A stretch of DNA of 64,000 nt, from positions 128,001 to 192,000 of the forward strand of contig CAWKDC010000001.1 of the NCBI GenBank assembly GCA_963848305.1, given 5' to 3'. The first letter of the stretch is position 1. Every line of letters starts with the position of its first letter. Under the pieces are notes generated by a model. It made no database searches. It was not told the origin of the DNA and saw only the letters and a program-made list of their open reading frames with translations. Source of the stretch: an uncultured Gammaproteobacteria bacterium. GTDB lineage: Bacteria; Pseudomonadota; Gammaproteobacteria; JABCZS01. Below, piece after piece: positions 1-15,110 of the stretch. The position numbers and the translations under genes were made by a program.

Positions 1-713
1 TACCGAACCGGCATATTGGAACCATCCCGGGTGCGTGCAGGAAACACCCACTCGTCATTGCTGGTGGGTTTGGAGATCTCTTTCCATGCCTTCAGTGATT
101 GAGCCAGGGGCGGAGTCATATCAAGACGGCGACAAACCTGGTTCTTGGTTCCAACCAGGATATCGCCACCGCGGACGTGCTGAAGAATGTCAATGGTGTT
201 ACTTGCGAAGTCGACGTGGGACCATTTCAGGCCTGTGATTTCCCCAAGCCGCCCTCCAAACGTCCGGATGCAATCGAACAGTATTGAACTTTTGATCGGC
301 AGAAGCCTTGCTAGATTATCCAGGATCTCTTCTGGTGGAAGCTTTGGCTTAATGGGCGTCGGCTTGGCCGGAAGCTGGATGAACTTGCAAGGGTTGGTCT
401 CAAGACCAACCACTTTCGTGAATTTCATCAGGTGACTGTACGGGCCACTCAGATAGTTGCGGATTTTATAGCTGTTCACGATTCCCGTGCCTTCTGACAG
501 CATTTTATTGAACACGGGCTGGAGATCGTCGCGCGTGATGGCGGTGATAGGTCGATCCCCTATTGTCGGGAAAAGGTGCTTTGCGAATGCCAAGTTTTTG
601 TCCTGGATCGTGCCGGGCGCCTGGGCATGGCTTTCCTCCAGTTCTTTCATCCAGCCCAGCCAGCACTCCCTCAAGGGTGATGGCTGAACTTCAGGTTCGG
701 CAGGCTGTGACAT
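1..713 (-). CDS. Tyrosine recombinase / phage-type integrase, partial (runs off left edge)
   Basis: Not in ORF track. Manual translation from ATG at 713 is open to position 1: MSQPAEPEVQ...KHLFPTIGDRPITAITRDDLQPVF...TNPCKFIQLP...FGGRLGEITGLKWSHVDF...GTKNQVCRRLDM...WVFP. Contains the box I R-x-G-E...L-x-W-x-x-V-D motif and the catalytic Lys region. Confidence 0.85.
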   Translation of the reverse strand, partial: MSQPAEPEVQPSPLRECWLGWMKELEESHAQAPGTIQDKNLAFAKHLFPTIGDRPITAITRDDLQPVFNKMLSEGTGIVNSYKIRNYLSGPYSHLMKFTKVVGLETNPCKFIQLPAKPTPIKPKLPPEEILDNLARLLPIKSSILFDCIRTFGGRLGEITGLKWSHVDFASNTIDILQHVRGGDILVGTKNQVCRRLDMTPPLAQSLKAWKEISKPTSNDEWVFPARTRDGSNMPVR

Positions 714-727
714 CAGCGTGACATCAC

Positions 728-1284
728 TTACCACGGCCGGCGGCCTTCGCCACGCACCACATTTTTTTCCCGCCACGGCTTGAGGTCGTGGCTGAGCAAT
801 AAGATCCGCGCCGTCTCCCGGCCCACCTGGGGCACCAGTTTGCGTTTGACGGCCTGTTCGGCGACCAAACGGATGGTCCAACGGGCGTAACCTTCCGGCG
901 GCGGGCCACAAACCATGGCAATGATCCGCTGCTTCTGCGGTTCGTCCAACAGTTGCTCGGCACCCCGCCCTTGCCGCTCGTAAAGCGCACCCGACAACCC
1001 GCCACGCCTATATCGGTGGCTGATCCACCGCACCGCCTGCGGGGTCAGATGCACCAGTTTGGCTACCGCCGGCGCGGTCAAGCCCGCCGACAACTGCTCC
1101 AAGGCGAGGGCCCGCAGGACCACGCACACCTGCTGAATCCCGGCTCGCAAAAGTTGCCGAAGCTGCTTCTGATCTTCGGCCGATACTTTCACCTCAAGGG
1201 GGCGTCGCGACATGCCCCCGTATAGACCCAAGGATTTCCCAAAAACAAGACATTATAGAATCTTTTCATGCAGTCAAAGACCTA
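728..1284 (-). mobile_element. Truncated IS630-family insertion sequence (HTH part only)
   Basis: ORF 728..1231 has the IS630 N-terminal HTH features (CGPPPEGYARWTIRLVA...LKPWREK), then an A7 run (762-768) leading in another frame to MWCVA, which stops at once; no DDE domain. Possible terminus TAGGTCTTTGAC (minus strand) near 1284 is an inference. Confidence 0.75.
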
Positions 1285-1415
1285 GGGCATTGGACGCGTT
1301 CGGGCCCTCGACGGGTCGCGCTTTGGAGTGGGTTAGGCTCGGATCTGAAGTATCTGGACAGGGAATTGGATTATACTGCCGTTTAGAATACGATGGACTG
1401 CTGGGGAAAAACACG

Positions 1416-2513
1416 ATGGGGGCTCAGCCAGCGAAACTTGGTCCCAGAAAAGTAGGATCGTTGGGTAGCAGGCCGCTGCGAAATTTGGCCGTCGCTGGCC
1501 CTGCCGTCGTTTGGGGCGTGCTTCTTTTAATATTACTCTGCTCACCCCTAGTTTTGGCAACCCAGGAGGGCGGCAACTTTGCGGCCGCGGAGAAGTTGTA
1601 TGCCGCGGGGAAAGTCTCCGAAGCAGAGGCCCTTTATCAAACGATTGGGAGTGAGGATCGGAATTTCGCCCAGGTGCTCCGGCGTCTGGGGGGAATTTAC
1701 TATTTAAGCGGTCGCCTGGGGTTGGCCGAGGAAAAATTCGCCCGTTACGCCAACCTGCAGAACTCAGCCGAAGCCTACACCTTGTTGGCAGGGGTGCAGT
1801 TTGACCTTAAGAAGTTCGATCCCGCCGTAGCTTCGGCCGAACACGCTATTCGTCTCGACCCCAGTTTTTACAAGGCTTTTACCGCGCTGGGGATGATTCT
1901 TGCCGCCGCGGGCGATTGGCCCGGCGCGGAAAAGGCGTACCACGAGGCCCTGCGTTTGAACGAAGGAGACGCCGATACATGGTTCTTAATCGGGCGCGGC
2001 TACTTCTCGCGCAACGACTTCGAGAAGGCCCAGAATGCCTTCGAGGAATCGCTCAAACGCAGTCCACAGCAAGTCCGCAACTATACGAATCTCGCCCTGG
2101 CACTGGAAGCCATGAACCAAGATGATGCGGCAGAAAAAGTACTGCAGCAGGGTACGCAAGTCGGTGAGGCCCAGGGGCGGCCTGATGTCACGGCGGCGGT
2201 GAATTACGGAATTTTTCTCTTGGAGCACGAGCGTAACGCAGAAAGTATGAGTGTTTTGGGCCAGGCCATCAAGGCGTCACCTCAAGATGCCGAGGCCCAC
2301 TACCAACTCGCCCGTTGCCTATTCCGCATGAAGCACTTTGAGGAGGCCGCGGCAGAAGGAGAGGCGTCCGTGCGCCTGAGCGGTCCCAACTATAAAGTGC
2401 AGTATTTGCTGGCACGGATCTACACCGCGCGGGGCGACACCGCGAATGCGGCGCGTCATGCTGAAGAAGCCGCCCATCTTGCCGACCAGAAACTCGCCTC
2501 GAGTAAGGAGTAG
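1416..2513 (+). CDS. Tetratricopeptide-repeat protein, probably exported
   Basis: Hydrophobic signal-like segment (VVWGVLLLILLCSPLVLA), then many TPRs (AYTLLAGVQFDLKKFDPAV..., AHYQLARCLFRMKHFEEA). Start uncertain; ORF track begins at 1212. Confidence 0.85.
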   Translation: MGAQPAKLGPRKVGSLGSRPLRNLAVAGPAVVWGVLLLILLCSPLVLATQEGGNFAAAEKLYAAGKVSEAEALYQTIGSEDRNFAQVLRRLGGIYYLSGRLGLAEEKFARYANLQNSAEAYTLLAGVQFDLKKFDPAVASAEHAIRLDPSFYKAFTALGMILAAAGDWPGAEKAYHEALRLNEGDADTWFLIGRGYFSRNDFEKAQNAFEESLKRSPQQVRNYTNLALALEAMNQDDAAEKVLQQGTQVGEAQGRPDVTAAVNYGIFLLEHERNAESMSVLGQAIKASPQDAEAHYQLARCLFRMKHFEEAAAEGEASVRLSGPNYKVQYLLARIYTARGDTANAARHAEEAAHLADQKLASSKE

Positions 2514-2530
2514 CGCCGTCCCGGGAGTCG

Positions 2531-4294
2531 CTACTGGGGTTCGGTCACCGTTAGAATCTGATCGGCCGGGATACTGGTAAGTTCCTGCCGCGCACCGCTG
2601 GGCCAGCGGATTTCCAGGCGTTTGACCACCGCATCGCGTCCCAGTCCGAAATGCACGCGCCGGTCGCTCGATCCGGCATAGCCCACGCTAGTCGTGACGT
2701 GGTTGTACTGGGTCCCACTCTCCGTCTCGACTCTTAACTCGGCGCCAATTCCGTCGCGATTACTGCGCGTCCCGACGGTTTTCACCAGAAGCCAATGATT
2801 TTCCTTGGCGGAGATATTTTGGAGTATTTGCGCCGGCGCTCCTAAGGCGGAAACCGCCAGATCGATACGCCCGTCATTATTCAAATCACCAAAGGCACAG
2901 CCGCGGTGCGCCAGGGGCCGCTCGAAATCCTGACCGGCATCGGCTGAGCCGTCCATGAAGCGACCCTTATCGTTCAGGAAGACCGCGTTGGGTTGCCGGA
3001 AAGGGACATTCATCTGCTCCAGCTCGATTTTGTCGTTCACGTGAGAATTGACCGCCACCAAATCCTTCCAACCGTCATTATTCATATCGTAAATCCCATT
3101 ACTCCACCCGCTCAGGAAGAGGCTCCAGCGCGCGAGCAAACTTGGATGAGTGAAATCGTCAAAGATCCCATGGCCCTCATTATGAAAATAAGAAAAGGTC
3201 TCATTGGAGATTGCGGTCACGAACAGGTCAGGCTGCCCGTCATTGTCCACATCTCGGAAATCGGTGCCCATGTAAGATAGGGCGGCACCGTCACCATTAA
3301 AGGCCACTCCTGCCTGCAGGGCCACTTCGTTAAAAGTGCCGTTACCGTTGTTGTGGAACAGAAAATTACGCGTTGTGTCGTTGGCCACAAAGACGTCCGG
3401 GTAGCCGTCATCGTCGTAGTCGGCGAACGATACCCCCATGCCTTTTCCCAAATGTGCGCGAATACCGGAGGAATCCGAGACGTCCGTAAACGTTCCATCG
3501 CGGTTATTATGATAGAGCATATTGGGCAAGGGCTGAAATTCTGAAGGATGACAGTAGACTCGGGAACCCCTCCGGGAGGCGGAGCAATAGGGATTCTCAT
3601 CGAGATTCCAGGCACAGTAGTTGACCACAAAGAGGTCGAGCCAGCCATCGTTGTCGTAATCAAACCAGCCCGCGGCCACCGACCAGGTTTTTCCTCGCTG
3701 CGGGTCGAGCCCAGCGACGCCGGCGCGGGCAGTAACGTCGGTGAACGTTCCATCGTGGTTATTGTGGTAGAGGATGTTTCGATTCACCCCGGTTACGTAG
3801 AGGTCTTCCCAGCCATCATTGTCATAGTCGGCCGCGGCAACCCCCATCGAGTAGCCTTCGCCTTTCACGCCGGCTTGTTCGGTCACGTCGGTGAAGGTGC
3901 CATCTCCGTTATTTCGGTAAAGACGATTCCAGTATTGTGGCCCGGTCTTTTGAAGTTCAGGAATGTGGGCCCCATTGGCAAAGTAGAGGTCCGGCAGGCC
4001 ATCATTGTTATAGTCGAAAACGGCCACACCCGCGACCATGGGCTCGATCTGATATTTATAGGGCGTCGCGCAATTGTCGAGCACAAAATGCACGCCGGCG
4101 CTTGCGGCAATGTCCTTAAATCTGACCGTAAGAGCTGAACCTGGGGGGGTGGCTTCCCGGCGCGGTGGCAGTGCCCCAAAAGTCAGAATTAGTGCACCCA
4201 CCACAGAAGCTACTAACGTCCAGGTGAATTTTAGTGGCCCGCCGTACCAACGCTTCATTGCGGTGGAGCTCCAGGGCGTGGGTTTTGACAGCAC
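2531..4294 (-). CDS. CRTAC1-family protein (FG-GAP/VCBS repeats plus ASPIC/UnbV domain)
   Basis: Repeated DYDNDGxxDL Ca-binding motifs, NRLYRNNGDGTFTDVT, and C-terminal SNRDGIGA...RVHFGLG...IRWPSG. Confidence 0.9.
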   Translation of the reverse strand: MLSKPTPWSSTAMKRWYGGPLKFTWTLVASVVGALILTFGALPPRREATPPGSALTVRFKDIAASAGVHFVLDNCATPYKYQIEPMVAGVAVFDYNNDGLPDLYFANGAHIPELQKTGPQYWNRLYRNNGDGTFTDVTEQAGVKGEGYSMGVAAADYDNDGWEDLYVTGVNRNILYHNNHDGTFTDVTARAGVAGLDPQRGKTWSVAAGWFDYDNDGWLDLFVVNYCAWNLDENPYCSASRRGSRVYCHPSEFQPLPNMLYHNNRDGTFTDVSDSSGIRAHLGKGMGVSFADYDDDGYPDVFVANDTTRNFLFHNNGNGTFNEVALQAGVAFNGDGAALSYMGTDFRDVDNDGQPDLFVTAISNETFSYFHNEGHGIFDDFTHPSLLARWSLFLSGWSNGIYDMNNDGWKDLVAVNSHVNDKIELEQMNVPFRQPNAVFLNDKGRFMDGSADAGQDFERPLAHRGCAFGDLNNDGRIDLAVSALGAPAQILQNISAKENHWLLVKTVGTRSNRDGIGAELRVETESGTQYNHVTTSVGYAGSSDRRVHFGLGRDAVVKRLEIRWPSGARQELTSIPADQILTVTEPQ

Positions 4295-10066: not shown

Positions 10067-10356
10067 GCAGCCGTTTTAGTCGTCGGAAAGAGAAATCCTC
10101 CCAGTACGCCTTTTTATACTGTTTTTTGCGTCGGGCTAGCGATAGCGAAGAGTGTTTCGTTGCCGCACAGGAGGGTAGGCGAATAAGAGAGACCAAGTGC
10201 GCATGGGTTCGGTGCGTGAAGGGATTCATTGGGTGGGCCACTTACGGTTCGGCTGGATTGCCCTACTGAAGTCCTCACGAAATGTCGCCCCAGGCACGAG
10301 CACAGATCCCAAGGCCAACGGTAGTACAGACTCCCAAATTTACAAGGAGGTCGTCG

Positions 10357-11521
10357 ATGAAGGAATGTGTGAAAGTTTTCCTCTCCATCGTTTTTTGTAC
10401 CGGTGCCCTTTTGCTTTCGAGCGCGACCGAGGCATTGGCCCAGACGAGCACGGGAACCGTTCTTGGCGTTGTGTCAGACCAGTCGGGGGGTGCCGTTCCG
10501 GACGCGGAAGTGGCACTTGTATCGACAACGACGGGTGTTAAGCGCACGACTGAGTCTCTCCAAACTGGAAACTACGAGTTTCCCTTGGTGGCGCCGGATA
10601 CGTATCAACTCACGGTAACCAAGTCAGGTTTCAGCACAGCCGCCTTCAACAATGTTGTCGTAAGAGTTAACGAGACGTTCACCCAAAACGTGGAAATGAG
10701 CGTTGGCAGTACAACGCAGCAAGTTACGGTCACGGCGGATGTGGCGAAGGTTGATACGAGCACGGCGACGCTGGGGGCCGTTACGGGGTATACCCAGATC
10801 ACCACTCTTCCCATTCTGGGCCGGAGTTTCCTCGCGCTAGCGACACTTTCCGCCGGGACGGTGGTCGATTATCCGGGAAGCTGGACGGGCACTTTCTCGG
10901 GCGGCCGGTCGGATATGGCGGTTGGCGTTTCGGGCGCCCAGGATTTCTTCACCACCAACCTGATCGACGGAGTGCCGACCAAGAGTCCGGAGTATGGCGG
11001 CATTGGGTACCAATTACCCCTGGAGATGATCGACGAATTTAACATCCAGCGTGGCTATTACTCCGCCAAATACCCGGGACCGGGCGTGGTCAACATCGCG
11101 AGCCGCTCGGGAGCGAATCAAATTCATGGCGTTGCCTGGGAAACCATCCGCAACAACGTCTTGGACTCGCGCAGCTTTTTCGATCAGAACATACCTCCCT
11201 TGCGGCAGAACCACTTCGGCGGGGCGTTCGGTGGAGCGATCAAGAAGGACAAACTCTTCTATTTTGGCAATGTACAATTTGTCCGCGACGTGATCGGGAG
11301 CACGCTCCTGGGATCTGTGCCCACGGCCTCCGAGTTGCAGGGAAACCTCTGCGATATCCCCGCCATCTCGCTCACCAATCCATTCACTGGCGGAGCTCTG
11401 TCATGTGTTATTCCCCAGGGCAATTTCGATCCGTTTGCCACGAAATTCATCGCCTTGGGATCCAGGGCCATTCCGCCCCCCACAACGTCGGGTCCGGCAG
11501 GAAGCATCAATCGTATCATCA
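10357..11521 (+). CDS. TonB-dependent receptor with carboxypeptidase-regulatory-like N-domain (Acidobacteria type), truncated at the junction
   Basis: Signal peptide, GTVLGVVSDQSGGAVPDA, LPILGRSFLALATL, RSGANQIHG, RNNVLDSRSFF, RQNHFGGAFGGAIKKDKLFYF. Only about 390 aa before the sequence switches to pyrD; RBS AAGGAGG. Confidence 0.88.
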
Positions 11522-12211
11522 CGATTAACAGACGATAACGCTTTGATCAACCGCATGGGTTTTCCCAATAAAGGCGTTGATCACCTTGTACAGCGACTTT
11601 CAACGCTTAAGCAGCGCCCTGTCCTGGGTATTAATATTGGCAAAAATGCAGCAACCTCACTAGAGGATGCCATTCACGATTATACTCACTGTTTAACGCG
11701 TGTTTATCCATACGCTGATTACGTTGCAGTGAACCTGTCTTCCCCCAATACCCCAGGATTACGCGAACTTCAGGGAGGGCGTTATTTGCCTGGTCTTTTG
11801 TCCGCCCTCAAAGCAGAGCAGGCCAGATTGGCAGATCAAACAGGGCGCCATGTCCCATTGGTCGTTAAAATCTCACCTGACCTCGCAGACTCAGAGGTGG
11901 AGGATATCGCACATATGCTTTTAGAAGCCCGTATAGAGGGTGCAATAGCGACCAATACGACCTTGTCTCGTTCAGGGCTTCATAAATCACTTGATCAGGC
12001 AGGGGGATTGAGCGGGGCACCTTTATTTTCTGCCTCTACTCACGTATTATCTCTCTTGAAAAAGGCGGTTGGGGATAAAATCGCTCTCATAGGCGTCGGG
12101 GGAATCATGGGTTCACAGGATGCCCAAGCCAAGTATGCGGCCGGCGCAGATTTGATTCAGGTCTACACAGGGCTCATTTACCAGGGTCCAGGCATGGTCA
12201 AAACCCTCTAA
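11522..12211 (+). CDS. pyrD: Quinone-dependent dihydroorotate dehydrogenase, 5' part missing
   Basis: RLTDDNALINRMGFPNKG, GINIGKN, NLSSPNTPGLR, VKISPD, ATNTT, GGLSG, IGVGGI, QVYTGLIYQGP. Confidence 0.92.
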   Translation, partial: RLTDDNALINRMGFPNKGVDHLVQRLSTLKQRPVLGINIGKNAATSLEDAIHDYTHCLTRVYPYADYVAVNLSSPNTPGLRELQGGRYLPGLLSALKAEQARLADQTGRHVPLVVKISPDLADSEVEDIAHMLLEARIEGAIATNTTLSRSGLHKSLDQAGGLSGAPLFSASTHVLSLLKKAVGDKIALIGVGGIMGSQDAQAKYAAGADLIQVYTGLIYQGPGMVKTL

Positions 12212-12542
12212 TCTTCCAGAATGTCTTTAAAGTTTGTGAGACATTGTCCATTTTGTGCCATCCTTTTAGCTAAAGTTGGCAATCTTCATTGATTTGAAAT
12301 TTTCAATATGTTAATTTGGCTCTATCGAAGTGCAATCATTTTGTAGGTTGTGAAAGGTTAAAGCTTACAAAATCAATGTGCTAGCGATGTTTGAGTCATT
12401 TTGATCGTAGTTTGCTTCTTAACTTGTGTTGGTTGCAGAATACTGTTAAAATACCCAGACCTGGCACTTAACGGTGCATGTAGGGTCTACTACCCTTGCG
12501 GGGGAGTAGAGAGAGGTTTTACTTAGAAATAGGAAGTGTCAT

Positions 12543-13155
12543 ATGCCACGCAAAACAGACAAACGCCAACGCCTGATTCAGGCTGCCAAGAAACTCATCC
12601 GTAGACAAGGTTTTCACTTAACAACCTTGGCTGATATTGCTCAAGAGGCAGATGTGCCGTTGGGTAACGTTTATTATTACTTTAAGACCAAAGAAGCGAT
12701 TGGTGAAGCTGTGATTGCCGATATTTCACGCAGTTTGAATGAGTTGATCACCGCCTGGGACGAGAATGCTGATCCCCGCGATAGACTGTTTGCTTTTGTC
12801 CAAGAAGAAGTCTCCAATGTCGAAGAAACAGCCCGTTCCGGCTGTGCCATTGGTGGACTTTGCCAAGAATTGGCAAAACAGGGCGGTCGCATTGGCCGAC
12901 GCTGCTGCCAAATTGATGAGCGACACCATTGCTTGGGCGGCTAAGCAATTTCATTCCTTGGGTATGGGCGATGCCTCAGGTGACCTGGCCAACCAATTCT
13001 ACGGAATGGTTCAAGGGACAGCCTTGTTGACGAACACGTTTAAAGAGCCAAAGTTGATGATCAACTTGAGCCAATCTCTCCGTGTTTGGTTGGACAAGCA
13101 TGTTGCGAAAGGTAAGGCAACTGCACCTATGGCTATTAAAGAAGAAGTGGCTTAA
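12543..13155 (+). CDS. TetR/AcrR-family regulator (frameshift near 12,888)
   Basis: HTH TTLADIAQEADVPLGNVYYYFKTKE and GCAIGGLCQEL; continues in ORF 12766..13155 (ALADAAAK...QGTALLTN). Confidence 0.85.
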
Positions 13156-13173
13156 ACTCCCTTTTTCAATGTT

Positions 13174-13204
13174 AGAAAAAACGCGCTCAAGGCGCGTTTT
13201 TTCT
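13174..13204. terminator. Bidirectional intrinsic terminator
   Basis: Perfect 13-bp inverted repeat AGAAAAAACGCGC-TCAAG-GCGCGTTTTTTCT between convergent genes. Confidence 0.85.
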
Positions 13205-13224
13205 TTTTCCATTTCTACCACTTG

Positions 13225-13479
13225 CTAAGGCCAATTATTAAATAGCTTTCTGGCAACCTCGTGTTGCGGTTGTTGGGGTACTGCGTGACTAAACAATAAT
13301 GGCTGAGCAGGCACCCAAACGGCAATATTCTCTATGTCATCATCGTCAACATCTTGGACGTGAAAACCTACTTTTCTGGGTGCACCTGGTACAACCAGCG
13401 TTCTTGCTGGTTGAGCAGGTGTTGATGGAACGTTGGCATTCATTGCTGCTAGCCCAGCGTTATTGTTCGGATTTATCAT
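13225..13479 (-). CDS. Small orphan protein (84 aa), low complexity, eukaryote-like motifs
   Basis: RBS TAAGGAGA upstream of ATG; ends just before the terminator; motifs STP, PGAPRK, VARKLF. Confidence 0.7.
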   Translation of the reverse strand: MINPNNNAGLAAMNANVPSTPAQPARTLVVPGAPRKVGFHVQDVDDDDIENIAVWVPAQPLLFSHAVPQQPQHEVARKLFNNWP

Positions 13480-13604
13480 ACAAATCTCCTTACTGAAACA
13501 AAGTATTTACTGATACTACTAAGAAATGTTAGTTACTGCACCAATCATACCTTATGACTATAGTCAGGAGATCAGATTTATACAAGTCCAAAGGATAATT
13601 CTTT

Positions 13605-14087
13605 TTAATGATTCCTTTTATCCACTCTAGGTCGTTTAGCAGGCTTCTCTGGTCTGGAAGGACATGTTGGCTGAATGTATTTGGGTACAGGTGTGCTGAC
13701 AGCGAACTGAATCATATTCATGAGATCTTCTTTATGGCCTTCCAGATGAGGGGCATTGAAGATTTGAGCGATGGCATGCTTAATCAAGGCGTTGCTTATT
13801 CTTGGATTTGTTTTAACAGGTTCTAAACGCAATGGCGCGTTCTCAGCATCTACCAACATAGAACCTAAGGATAGCGTGCCTAACCCATTGACCATCAGAT
13901 GATTGATCAACGTAATTAATTGATTTCTGTATTCTTTTGAAACCTGCATGTCAAGATGGAGGCACTGGCTGTCATCTTGCCAGATACCAATTTCTTGATC
14001 GCCTTGAACATAGTTAACTTGTCGTGCGACACTGGGCGACTTCTCATCTGTTAACGTCAAATCGCCGATTTTGTCCCATTGTTTCAT
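13605..14087 (-). CDS. Orphan protein with basic C-terminal tail
   Basis: Long ORF in AT-rich DNA, RBS GGGGG; tail STPVPKYIQPTCPSRPEKPAKRPRVDKRNH. Confidence 0.7.
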   Translation of the reverse strand: MKQWDKIGDLTLTDEKSPSVARQVNYVQGDQEIGIWQDDSQCLHLDMQVSKEYRNQLITLINHLMVNGLGTLSLGSMLVDAENAPLRLEPVKTNPRISNALIKHAIAQIFNAPHLEGHKEDLMNMIQFAVSTPVPKYIQPTCPSRPEKPAKRPRVDKRNH

Positions 14088-14180
14088 ATTGACCCCCAAA
14101 CTGCTTAATAACCACTATAAAACTGATGGCTATCTTACCCTTCATTTTTTAATAAGTCAAATAAAAAATGTTAGGTAAAT

Positions 14181-14369
14181 TTATGCCAACGCCGTCTGTT
14201 TGAGGATGATTTGGATGACAAGGCCTAGACTTGCGATGAAAATGAGGATAAATATAACCCCTACAAGCACGTAAGGCCATAATTTTGTTTGAGAAAAGTC
14301 TTTATGGGCTGCATTTGCAGGGTGCACGCCGAGCATTGCACTCAAAACACTTTTAACGATATCCCACAT
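14181..14369 (-). CDS. DUF2970-like small membrane protein
   Basis: IVKSVLSAMLGV...KDF...PYVLVGVIFILIFI pattern. Confidence 0.7.
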   Translation of the reverse strand: MWDIVKSVLSAMLGVHPANAAHKDFSQTKLWPYVLVGVIFILIFIASLGLVIQIILKQTALA

Positions 14370-14371
14370 GA

Positions 14372-15110
14372 TTAGCGCTCCAATTGTCGTTCCATGTCAG
14401 TACGTACCCGAGACATCAAGGCATCCCGGCTGTTAGTGCCTGTCCCCATTCCTTGCGTATCAATCGGCTCCCCAACAGTGACGGTCACAGTTTTGCCAGC
14501 AGAGAAATCCCATGTCTTGGCAGGCAAAATATCATGGGTGCCATGGATGGTCATCGGGATAATGATGGCCTCGGCTTCAAGGGCCAATATGAAAATCCCC
14601 TTTTTGAAGGGAAGAAGTTCACCTGTGCGAGAACGGGTTCCTTCTGCAGCGGCCCAGATCACAATGCCACTTTCCATGAGTTTTTTCGCTGCTTGTAGAG
14701 CAGATAGGGCATGATGACGGTTTTGACGGTCGATTTTGATGTACTCATGCTTCGTGAGCGCCGCCAAAAAAGGGAATATCGAATAGTTCCTTTTTTGTGA
14801 TCATACGAATACTATAAGGAAGGGCCGCATACACGGCAGGGATATCAAAGTGGCTGGCATGGTTGGAAATGAGGATATAAGGGCGACCTGGGATCAGCGC
14901 GGGTGGTGTCCCTTTCACTTGCAAATGCGCGCCGACAGCGGCGAGCATTTGCTGCCCAAATTCCTTGGCAAGCGTATCAGTACGTTCGCGGTTATTGCGA
15001 CCGGCCATATTCATATAAATGCTTTTCACCAGCATTTTGCAAAATACAAAAAGCGAGGCAAGGGCAAGGTATGTGCGTGTTTGTTTAATCATATACGTAT
15101 AGTACCACAA
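14372..15110 (-). CDS. plsC: 1-acyl-sn-glycerol-3-phosphate acyltransferase (frameshift near 14,762)
   Basis: NHASHFD and KKELFDIPFFG in ORF 14745..15110; EGTRS, FKKG, IIPMTI in ORF 14372..14767. Confidence 0.85.

Follow-up and report, generated by a model that had tools for sequence, protein, structure and literature searches.

ORF84, a reading frame for 84 amino acids in a small-genome gammaproteobacterium, is interpreted here as a young orphan cistron, probably translated, that forms part of a cassette in a variable genomic slot and is a candidate substrate of the Dot/Icm secretion system at best. We hold this reading tentatively, somewhat short of calling it probable. The ORF would be genuine and evolutionarily young at the strain level, and would come second, after a gene for 160 aa, in a cassette of two orphan genes between a DUF2970 gene and a TetR gene. 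The features on which this interpretation draws are given below, with positions counted in the window, i.e., the whole stretch of 64,000 nt that was analysed.

13225..13479, minus strand: ORF84, an 84-aa orphan ORF, stop codon included
13486..13491, minus strand: Shine-Dalgarno sequence AAGGAG, 6 nt 5′ of the ATG of ORF84
13372..13425, minus strand: core motif, residues 19–36, STPAQPARTLVVPGAPRK, with TP, LxVP and PxxPxK / PxAPxK
13330..13353, minus strand: acidic patch DVDDDDIE, residues 43–50
13240..13260, minus strand: C-terminal EVARKLF, residues 74–80, in which RKLF fits RxLF
13174..13204, both strands: bidirectional intrinsic terminator, common to ORF84 and the convergent TetR gene
13480..13604, minus strand: A+T-rich spacer of 125 nt between the upstream 160-aa orphan and ORF84
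13605..14087, minus strand: upstream orphan ORF, 160 aa if started at its ATG and 164 aa if started at TTG 14099
14132..14160, minus strand: promoter-like site TTGACT-17-TAAGAT, which precedes the 160-aa ORF and is the only such site on this strand

The original prediction had credited ORF84 with a ribosome-binding site and a terminator of its own, and both were recovered. AAGGAG lies at 13491..13486, 6 nt ahead of the ATG. The same hexamer was found at −17 to −4 in 29 of 670 long ORFs and in 11 of 2259 ORFs of 60–100 aa, being about nine times commoner in the former. The G + C-rich terminator hairpin lies 20 nt after the stop codon of ORF84. It was listed by the scan only for the plus strand; on the minus strand we read it by eye as CGCGC-loop-GCGCG, then TTTTTTCT. 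Because TTTTTTCT follows the hairpin on the minus strand, the terminator is bidirectional and can serve both ORF84 and the TetR gene. A search of Rfam over positions 12000–15000 gave eight matches, all on this hairpin and all below the gathering scores.

In the 125-nt spacer between the 160-aa ORF and ORF84 the scan listed no terminator-like site. The 160-aa ORF probably heads the transcript that also carries ORF84. ORF84 would then be transcribed together with the upstream orphan, with the transcript ended by the shared bidirectional terminator, and would be translated from its own strong Shine-Dalgarno sequence into a product with no recognisable domain. Promoter-like sites were not above chance, with two found versus a mean of 2.6 in shuffled sequences. 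Overall, we consider the translation of ORF84 moderately probable.

The frame was also found in a second, independent assembly, whose 84-aa product (P0001) is 99% identical, with a single change, P24A. In addition, a short contig from run X1 is an exact match to positions 13430–13699, which take in the stop codon of the 160-aa ORF, the spacer that follows it and the 5′ end of ORF84. This exact match matters because the window assembly has indel problems nearby. No contig from runs X1–X4 covered positions 13225–13429, which make up most of ORF84, and none of the runs listed was an RNA dataset with the organism.

Several irregularities were noticed in the assembly around the locus. The G + C content of contig C1 is 53–61% over the first ~139.5 kb and ~45% over the remainder. 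Near window positions 11,500–11,540, a truncated ORF resembling a TonB-dependent receptor (10282..11538) abuts a pyrD fragment in which roughly the first 62 positions of the profile are missing. These sequence features give the contig a chimeric appearance. In both the TetR gene (12543..13155) and an acyltransferase gene (14372..15110), the coding sequence is divided between two frames. At 12889, the contigs of X2 and X4 are one base shorter, which brings the TetR halves into one frame, and behind 14763 the X3 contig has two extra bases, which does the same for the acyltransferase halves. The splits at 12889 and 14763 are either assembly indel errors, which is probably the case, or strain-specific frameshifts.

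The product of ORF84 is rich in Pro, Ala, Val and Asn. It carries TP at residues 20–21, PGAPRK at 31–36, DVDDDDIE at 43–50 and RKLF at 77–80, so that the motif order given in the original prediction is present in the sequence. The peptide had also been called disordered-looking, which was not confirmed: despite 64% disorder-promoting residues, the charge-hydropathy plot places it on the folded side.

Homologue searches bore out the earlier label of orphan. Within its own genome, ORF84 matched only itself and, with 13.8 bits, a sequence with an internal stop. Sixty related genomes, including two congeneric ones that are 95–99% complete, yielded no relative; the best other match there had an E-value of 0.058, and five of the eight other matches contained internal stop codons. 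A word-indexed search of 5.8 billion clusters confirmed one of 32 candidates, the 99% copy P0001. An exhaustive phmmer search of 1,835,955,588 protein representatives (E ≤ 0.001, library of 2.4e11 residues) returned three proteins, namely P0001 (the strain copy), P0004 (a giant-virus family) and P0003 (a repeat protein). As judged by sequence comparison, P0001 is the only true match among the 1.84 billion representatives. Searches with alignment A1 gave 175 and 95 pattern matches in genome and viral collections, respectively, none of which was confirmed. ORF84 had no family in Pfam, NCBIfam, PADLOC or PHROGs and no relative in the PDB, and its Atlas neighbours were exclusively unnamed clusters (0.92–0.93) with low recognition. 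With no homologue beyond the 99% copy, purifying selection on ORF84 cannot be shown.

P0003, a protein of 2925 aa from an 832-kb contig, has at least 13 repeat units with KVDFQSQEVPDDDGEAPAYAAWVERQKLL, each 42–47% identical to residues 36–71 of ORF84 over 38 aa. We rejected it as a relative, the similarity being a low-complexity chance resemblance inflated by the repeats.

The slot occupied by the two orphans is bounded by the DUF2970 gene on one side and by the convergent TetR gene on the other. In G001, a genome of the same genus, it is filled by a single ORF of 286 aa, itself an orphan; G002 has other genes there, and G004 and G005 differ again (loci L016 for G001, L011 for G002, L013 for G004 and L014 for G005). 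Since the relatives carry different genes behind DUF2970, the slot is variable, and it may be an insertion hot spot. More generally, the DNA immediately downstream of the conserved SLT, acyltransferase and DUF2970 genes differs in every relative examined.

The 160-aa orphan was matched in one of the 12 genomes of the family, its own. It gave no family in the four libraries (Pfam, NCBIfam, PADLOC, PHROGs) and no usable match in the Atlas, and its low-confidence AlphaFold model (pLDDT 42.5) did not lend itself to a fold search. Two weak collinear matches connect it to residues 1–161 of the 286-aa orphan of G001 (MKQWDKIGDLT/MPVWKREGNFT at the N-terminus and PEKPAKRPRVD/PKKPATRPIVN further on; joint E-value 0.07). 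The 160-aa ORF, the spacer and ORF84 together span 291 codons, versus 286 in G001, and a gene fission linking the 286-aa ORF to the two ORFs of the window is conceivable. That ORF84 might be homologous to the 286-aa ORF in its tail was considered and rejected, as no homology was detectable (E 32) and anything else was at noise level.

Basic stretches are the rule for eukaryotic nuclear localisation signals, and the C-terminal basic tail of the 160-aa orphan, PEKPAKRPRVDKRNH, resembles such a signal. In the 286-aa orphan of G001, PKKPATRPIVN corresponds in position to the PEKPAKRPRVDKRNH region.

Codon use does not support ORF84 as a settled gene. Its score of 0.042 is lower than that of 98% of the in-frame chunks of long ORFs (mean 0.283, sd 0.114), and 40% of the out-of-frame “shadow” ORFs of similar length (mean 0.009, sd 0.110) outscore it. 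The antisense frame scores 0.094, slightly above ORF84. The native codon use of the host genome is thus not seen in ORF84, and its Atlas recognition (1152) is within the range of shuffled sequences. This shadow-like codon use and low recognition are what would be expected if ORF84 were a functionless or untranslated frame in the 3′ region of the 160-aa orphan, an explanation that is doubtful but has to be taken seriously. One possibility within it is that ORF84 is the decayed C-terminal tail of an ancestor of ~290 codons, like the 286-aa ORF of G001. The lack of an ORF84 homologue even in the same genus, the similar codon counts (291 and 286) and the weak collinear matches between the 160-aa ORF and G001 (E 0.07) are in agreement with this. 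However, no similarity connects ORF84 with the G001 tail (E 32), a strong Shine-Dalgarno sequence stands at the right spacing, the frame is intact in two assemblies, and the stop and spacer between the ORFs were confirmed by an independent contig. Without ORF84, there would also be a non-coding gap of ~400 nt in a compact genome.

For the reading as a young cistron, the lifestyle of the host is relevant. The original prediction had suggested a check for Dot/Icm genes, and a type IVB system is indeed present, with DotI/IcmL detected at 186 bits. In the cluster G000:C1:910000-929999 (locus L023), 7 of the 12 ORFs scanned matched T4BSS families: TrbI (DotG-like), DotI, T2SSE (DotB-like), T4SS_TraI (DotC-like), DotD, DotM_C and TraG-D_C (DotL-like). 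The other five gave no family. DotI was found in 11 of the 12 genomes of the family, the single miss being a genome that is 53% complete. The bacterium occurs in wetland, soil and sediment runs, with small shares in X1–X4.

Comparative genomics of Legionella has shown that Dot/Icm effector repertoires consist largely of species-specific orphans, and the C-terminal translocation signal of such effectors is formed by acidic and small or polar residues in the last 20–30 positions. The presence of Dot/Icm therefore makes an effector role plausible, on general grounds, for a strain-specific orphan. ORF84 is similar to Legionella-like Dot/Icm substrates in that it is a strain-level orphan with eukaryote-type motifs, in a variable slot of a genome with Dot/Icm; no clear acidic C-terminal signal was seen in it. 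Counted by composition and without a trained predictor, its last 30 residues include one acidic and ten small or polar residues, and with a single acidic residue there is no obvious signal of the E-block type. We regard ORF84 as a possible candidate Dot/Icm effector. If functional, it would most likely be a species-specific Dot/Icm substrate acting via short linear motifs.

Alternatively, ORF84 could encode a genuine small protein that acts only within the bacterium, for instance as a partner or regulator of the 160-aa orphan, which we consider unlikely. The two ORFs are on the same strand, 125 nt apart with no terminator-like site listed between them, and both are orphans of the slot. Yet a spacing of 125 nt is atypical of tight two-gene modules, and Pfam, NCBIfam, PADLOC and PHROGs gave no family match. 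The neighbour's model (pLDDT 42.5) is such that nothing can be said on an interface between the two proteins.

The motifs of ORF84 were compared with chance in two ways, both proposed in the original prediction, by a pattern search of its own genome and by shuffling. The ordered pattern TP..P.AP.K..[RK].LF occurred in none of 200,000 shuffles of the ORF84 product. In the genome, the full combination was found in one of the 10,469 open frames of at least 60 aa (1.33 million residues), namely ORF84. These rarities are post hoc, the pattern having been defined after the ORF84 sequence was read. Taken singly, the motifs were found in 0.43% (P.AP.K), 1.1% ([RK].LF), 0.16% (a run of four acidic residues) and 25% (TP) of the shuffles, while among the genome frames TP.{3,20}P.AP.K alone hit 3 and [RK].LF hit 624. 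By our own estimate, ~0.05–0.1 chance combinations are to be expected per genome. The combination is rare per window, yet it is expected many times across a large scan, and hundreds of other “eukaryote-like layouts” would be equally reportable.

The same residues can be read in other ways. Class II SH3 ligands follow the rule PxxPx[KR], and calcineurin docks to LxVP. In ORF84, PAQPAR and PGAPRK fit P..P.[KR] and LVVP fits L.VP, which is a likeness to both ligand types; the difference lies in the looseness of the rules, with which 7.6 and 7.9% of the shuffles comply, respectively. Since the same residues fit the SH3 and LxVP rules at such rates, the motif reading is non-specific. A few residues fit a TP kinase site, LxVP, PxxPxK and RxL equally well, and on these sequence grounds the resemblance to SIAMESE and p21, and with it the inhibitor-like layout of ORF84, is most likely coincidental.

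In plant SIAMESE/SMR inhibitors of cyclin-dependent kinases (CDK), the proline-basic element has the form P.AP.K and follows a TP site, and RxLF is the cyclin-docking motif of p21 and p27. The original prediction had assigned ORF84 a SIAMESE-like layout plus RxLF. Of this, the TP site, PGAPRK and RKLF are present, but motif C of the SMRs and the CDI domain are absent. Three motifs, A, B and C, define the SMR family according to bioRxiv 10.1101/2020.03.12.989079, and PMC10904545 gives EIERFF as the consensus of motif C. Motif C binds cyclin and is shared with ICK/KRP, and motif A, 10 residues from a conserved Thr, binds CDK and CYCA2;3. The pattern [ED][IVL][ED].FF hit 3 of the 10,469 genome frames, ORF84 not being among them; the nearest stretch to motif C in ORF84 is EVARKLF, which needs an extra residue. 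The candidate for motif A is TP at residues 20–21, a dipeptide found in 25% of the shuffles. PGAPRK, the candidate for motif B, was compared with the form P.AP.K.

ORF84 is like SIAMESE/SMR proteins in its small size, in the TP followed by PGAPRK, and in the hydrophobic LF near the C-terminus. It differs from them by the absence of EIERFF, by the lack of a plant protein among the three matches of the exhaustive phmmer search (E ≤ 0.001), and by its bacterial host, the SMRs being described as plant-specific in PMC7389639 and bioRxiv 10.1101/2020.03.12.989079. The likeness to the CIP/KIP proteins p21 and p27 consists of RKLF (residues 77–80), which fits the RxL cyclin-docking motif RxLF; this motif has low specificity (1.1% of shuffles) and is common in the genome (624 of 10,469 frames). 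In contrast to CIP/KIP proteins, ORF84 has no CDI domain, with no Pfam match at E ≤ 0.01 and only DUF5585 (10.5 bits) at E ≤ 10, and no p21 or p27 chain was found in a PDB search. On this sequence comparison, membership of ORF84 in the SMR or CIP/KIP families is not supported.

The best non-self match of the exhaustive search, P0004, belongs to a family of six proteins (P0004, P0005, P0006, P0008, P0009 and P0010; locus L021, gene L021:163-675 on the plus strand). P0004 has 170 aa and three tandem units of the form TTPVRERRALVVPGAPRK, and its five relatives have 2–3 units each. The family search confirmed 4 of 376 candidates, and no further relatives were found in viral or genome collections. 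The unit reads TTPV-x3-R-x-[IL]V[VI]P-x-AP[KR]K, with TP, R, VVP and AP[KR]K invariant across units, and the proteins end in a conserved C-terminal domain of ~55 aa; Pfam gave no family for them. Each unit is then followed by VP..LF or PFPLF, and the C-terminal domain begins with DEI[ND]ELL. The layout of TP plus P.AP[KR]K in P0004 recalls the SMR motifs as much as that of ORF84 does.

The L021 contig has a G + C content of 16–32% and an ACBP gene adjoining, the P0004 gene being relatively G + C-rich. For a 478-aa gene beside P0004, two IMG/VR records labelled as giant-virus MAGs hold relatives, one 94% and the other 45% identical; in the more distant record the neighbourhood is kept and there is no P0004-like gene. 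These relatives of the neighbour, together with the L021 context, indicate that the P0004 family is viral and eukaryote-directed.

ORF84 and the P0004 family have in common the core TP-x4-R-x-L-VVPGAPRK-V, with an identical 10-mer, LVVPGAPRKV. The P0004 profile aligned residues 17–36 of ORF84 to its positions 39–58 with 18.1 bits, the core unit being present, and this core is the only part of ORF84 that matches the family. By eye, the later elements VP..LF and Q.EV...LF also seem common to both; the part of ORF84 after PGAPRK did not score above shuffles, 170–2508 of 5000 of which reached its score (with a gap-open penalty of −11 the count was 442–3434 of 5000, and with −8 it rose to as many as 3705 of 5000). 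The likeness is therefore one of the TP, R, VVP and AP[KR]K core, whereas the tandem units and the ~55-aa C-terminal domain are both absent from ORF84, which ends before that domain. Over 299 other gammaproteobacterial genomes, the P0004 profile gave matches of 17.5 and 16.3 bits, versus 16.4 for ORF84, and both lie in plainly unrelated sequence. Because 2 of the 299 genomes have matches of equal score, we treat the link to P0004 as a lead rather than as evidence or homology. For P0004, the E-value of 2e-5 in the database search results from the sum over three near-identical repeats, and by our own estimate chance alone would give a single unit of such strength many times over in 2.4e11 residues.

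We consider it very improbable that ORF84 is a CDK-inhibitor mimic delivered by Dot/Icm, which would bind cyclin via RKLF and CDK via TP...PxAPxK and so arrest the host cell cycle. The ordered motifs, their full combination in a single one of the 10,469 frames, the presence of Dot/Icm and a giant-virus family whose 2–3 tandem units per protein keep TP and P.AP[KR]K with the same spacing would all fit such a role. However, motif C, the CDI domain and a p21/p27 match in the PDB are all lacking, and SMRs are described as plant-specific, while the bacterium was found in wetland, soil and sediment runs. The giant-virus match is limited to 20 residues and is equalled in 2 of 299 genomes, RxLF is not conserved in the P0004 family (by eye, 3 of 12 compared units, i.e., the second unit of P0004, P0005 and P0010), and the motifs were chosen after reading. 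Nothing beyond the motifs themselves supports a mimic, and ORF84 fails the one defining SMR feature that was testable. More improbable still is that TP-x4-R-x-[LI]VVP-x-AP[KR]K is a real motif for docking to a conserved host hub (CDK–cyclin or similar), functionally akin to SIAMESE motifs A and B and used independently by the giant-virus family (2–3 tandem copies) and by ORF84 (one copy plus RKLF), which would make ORF84 the first bacterial effector to inhibit host CDKs by direct mimicry of a motif.

If ORF84 were such a mimic, it would represent a new route to host cell-cycle arrest, a tiny peptide docking directly to CDK–cyclin, with a parallel in giant viruses; cyclomodulins such as Cif are described in reviews as acting indirectly. 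On present evidence, ORF84 is one more strain-specific orphan in a genome with Dot/Icm and a low-priority effector candidate, and it illustrates how easily short motifs are assembled by chance into a familiar layout.
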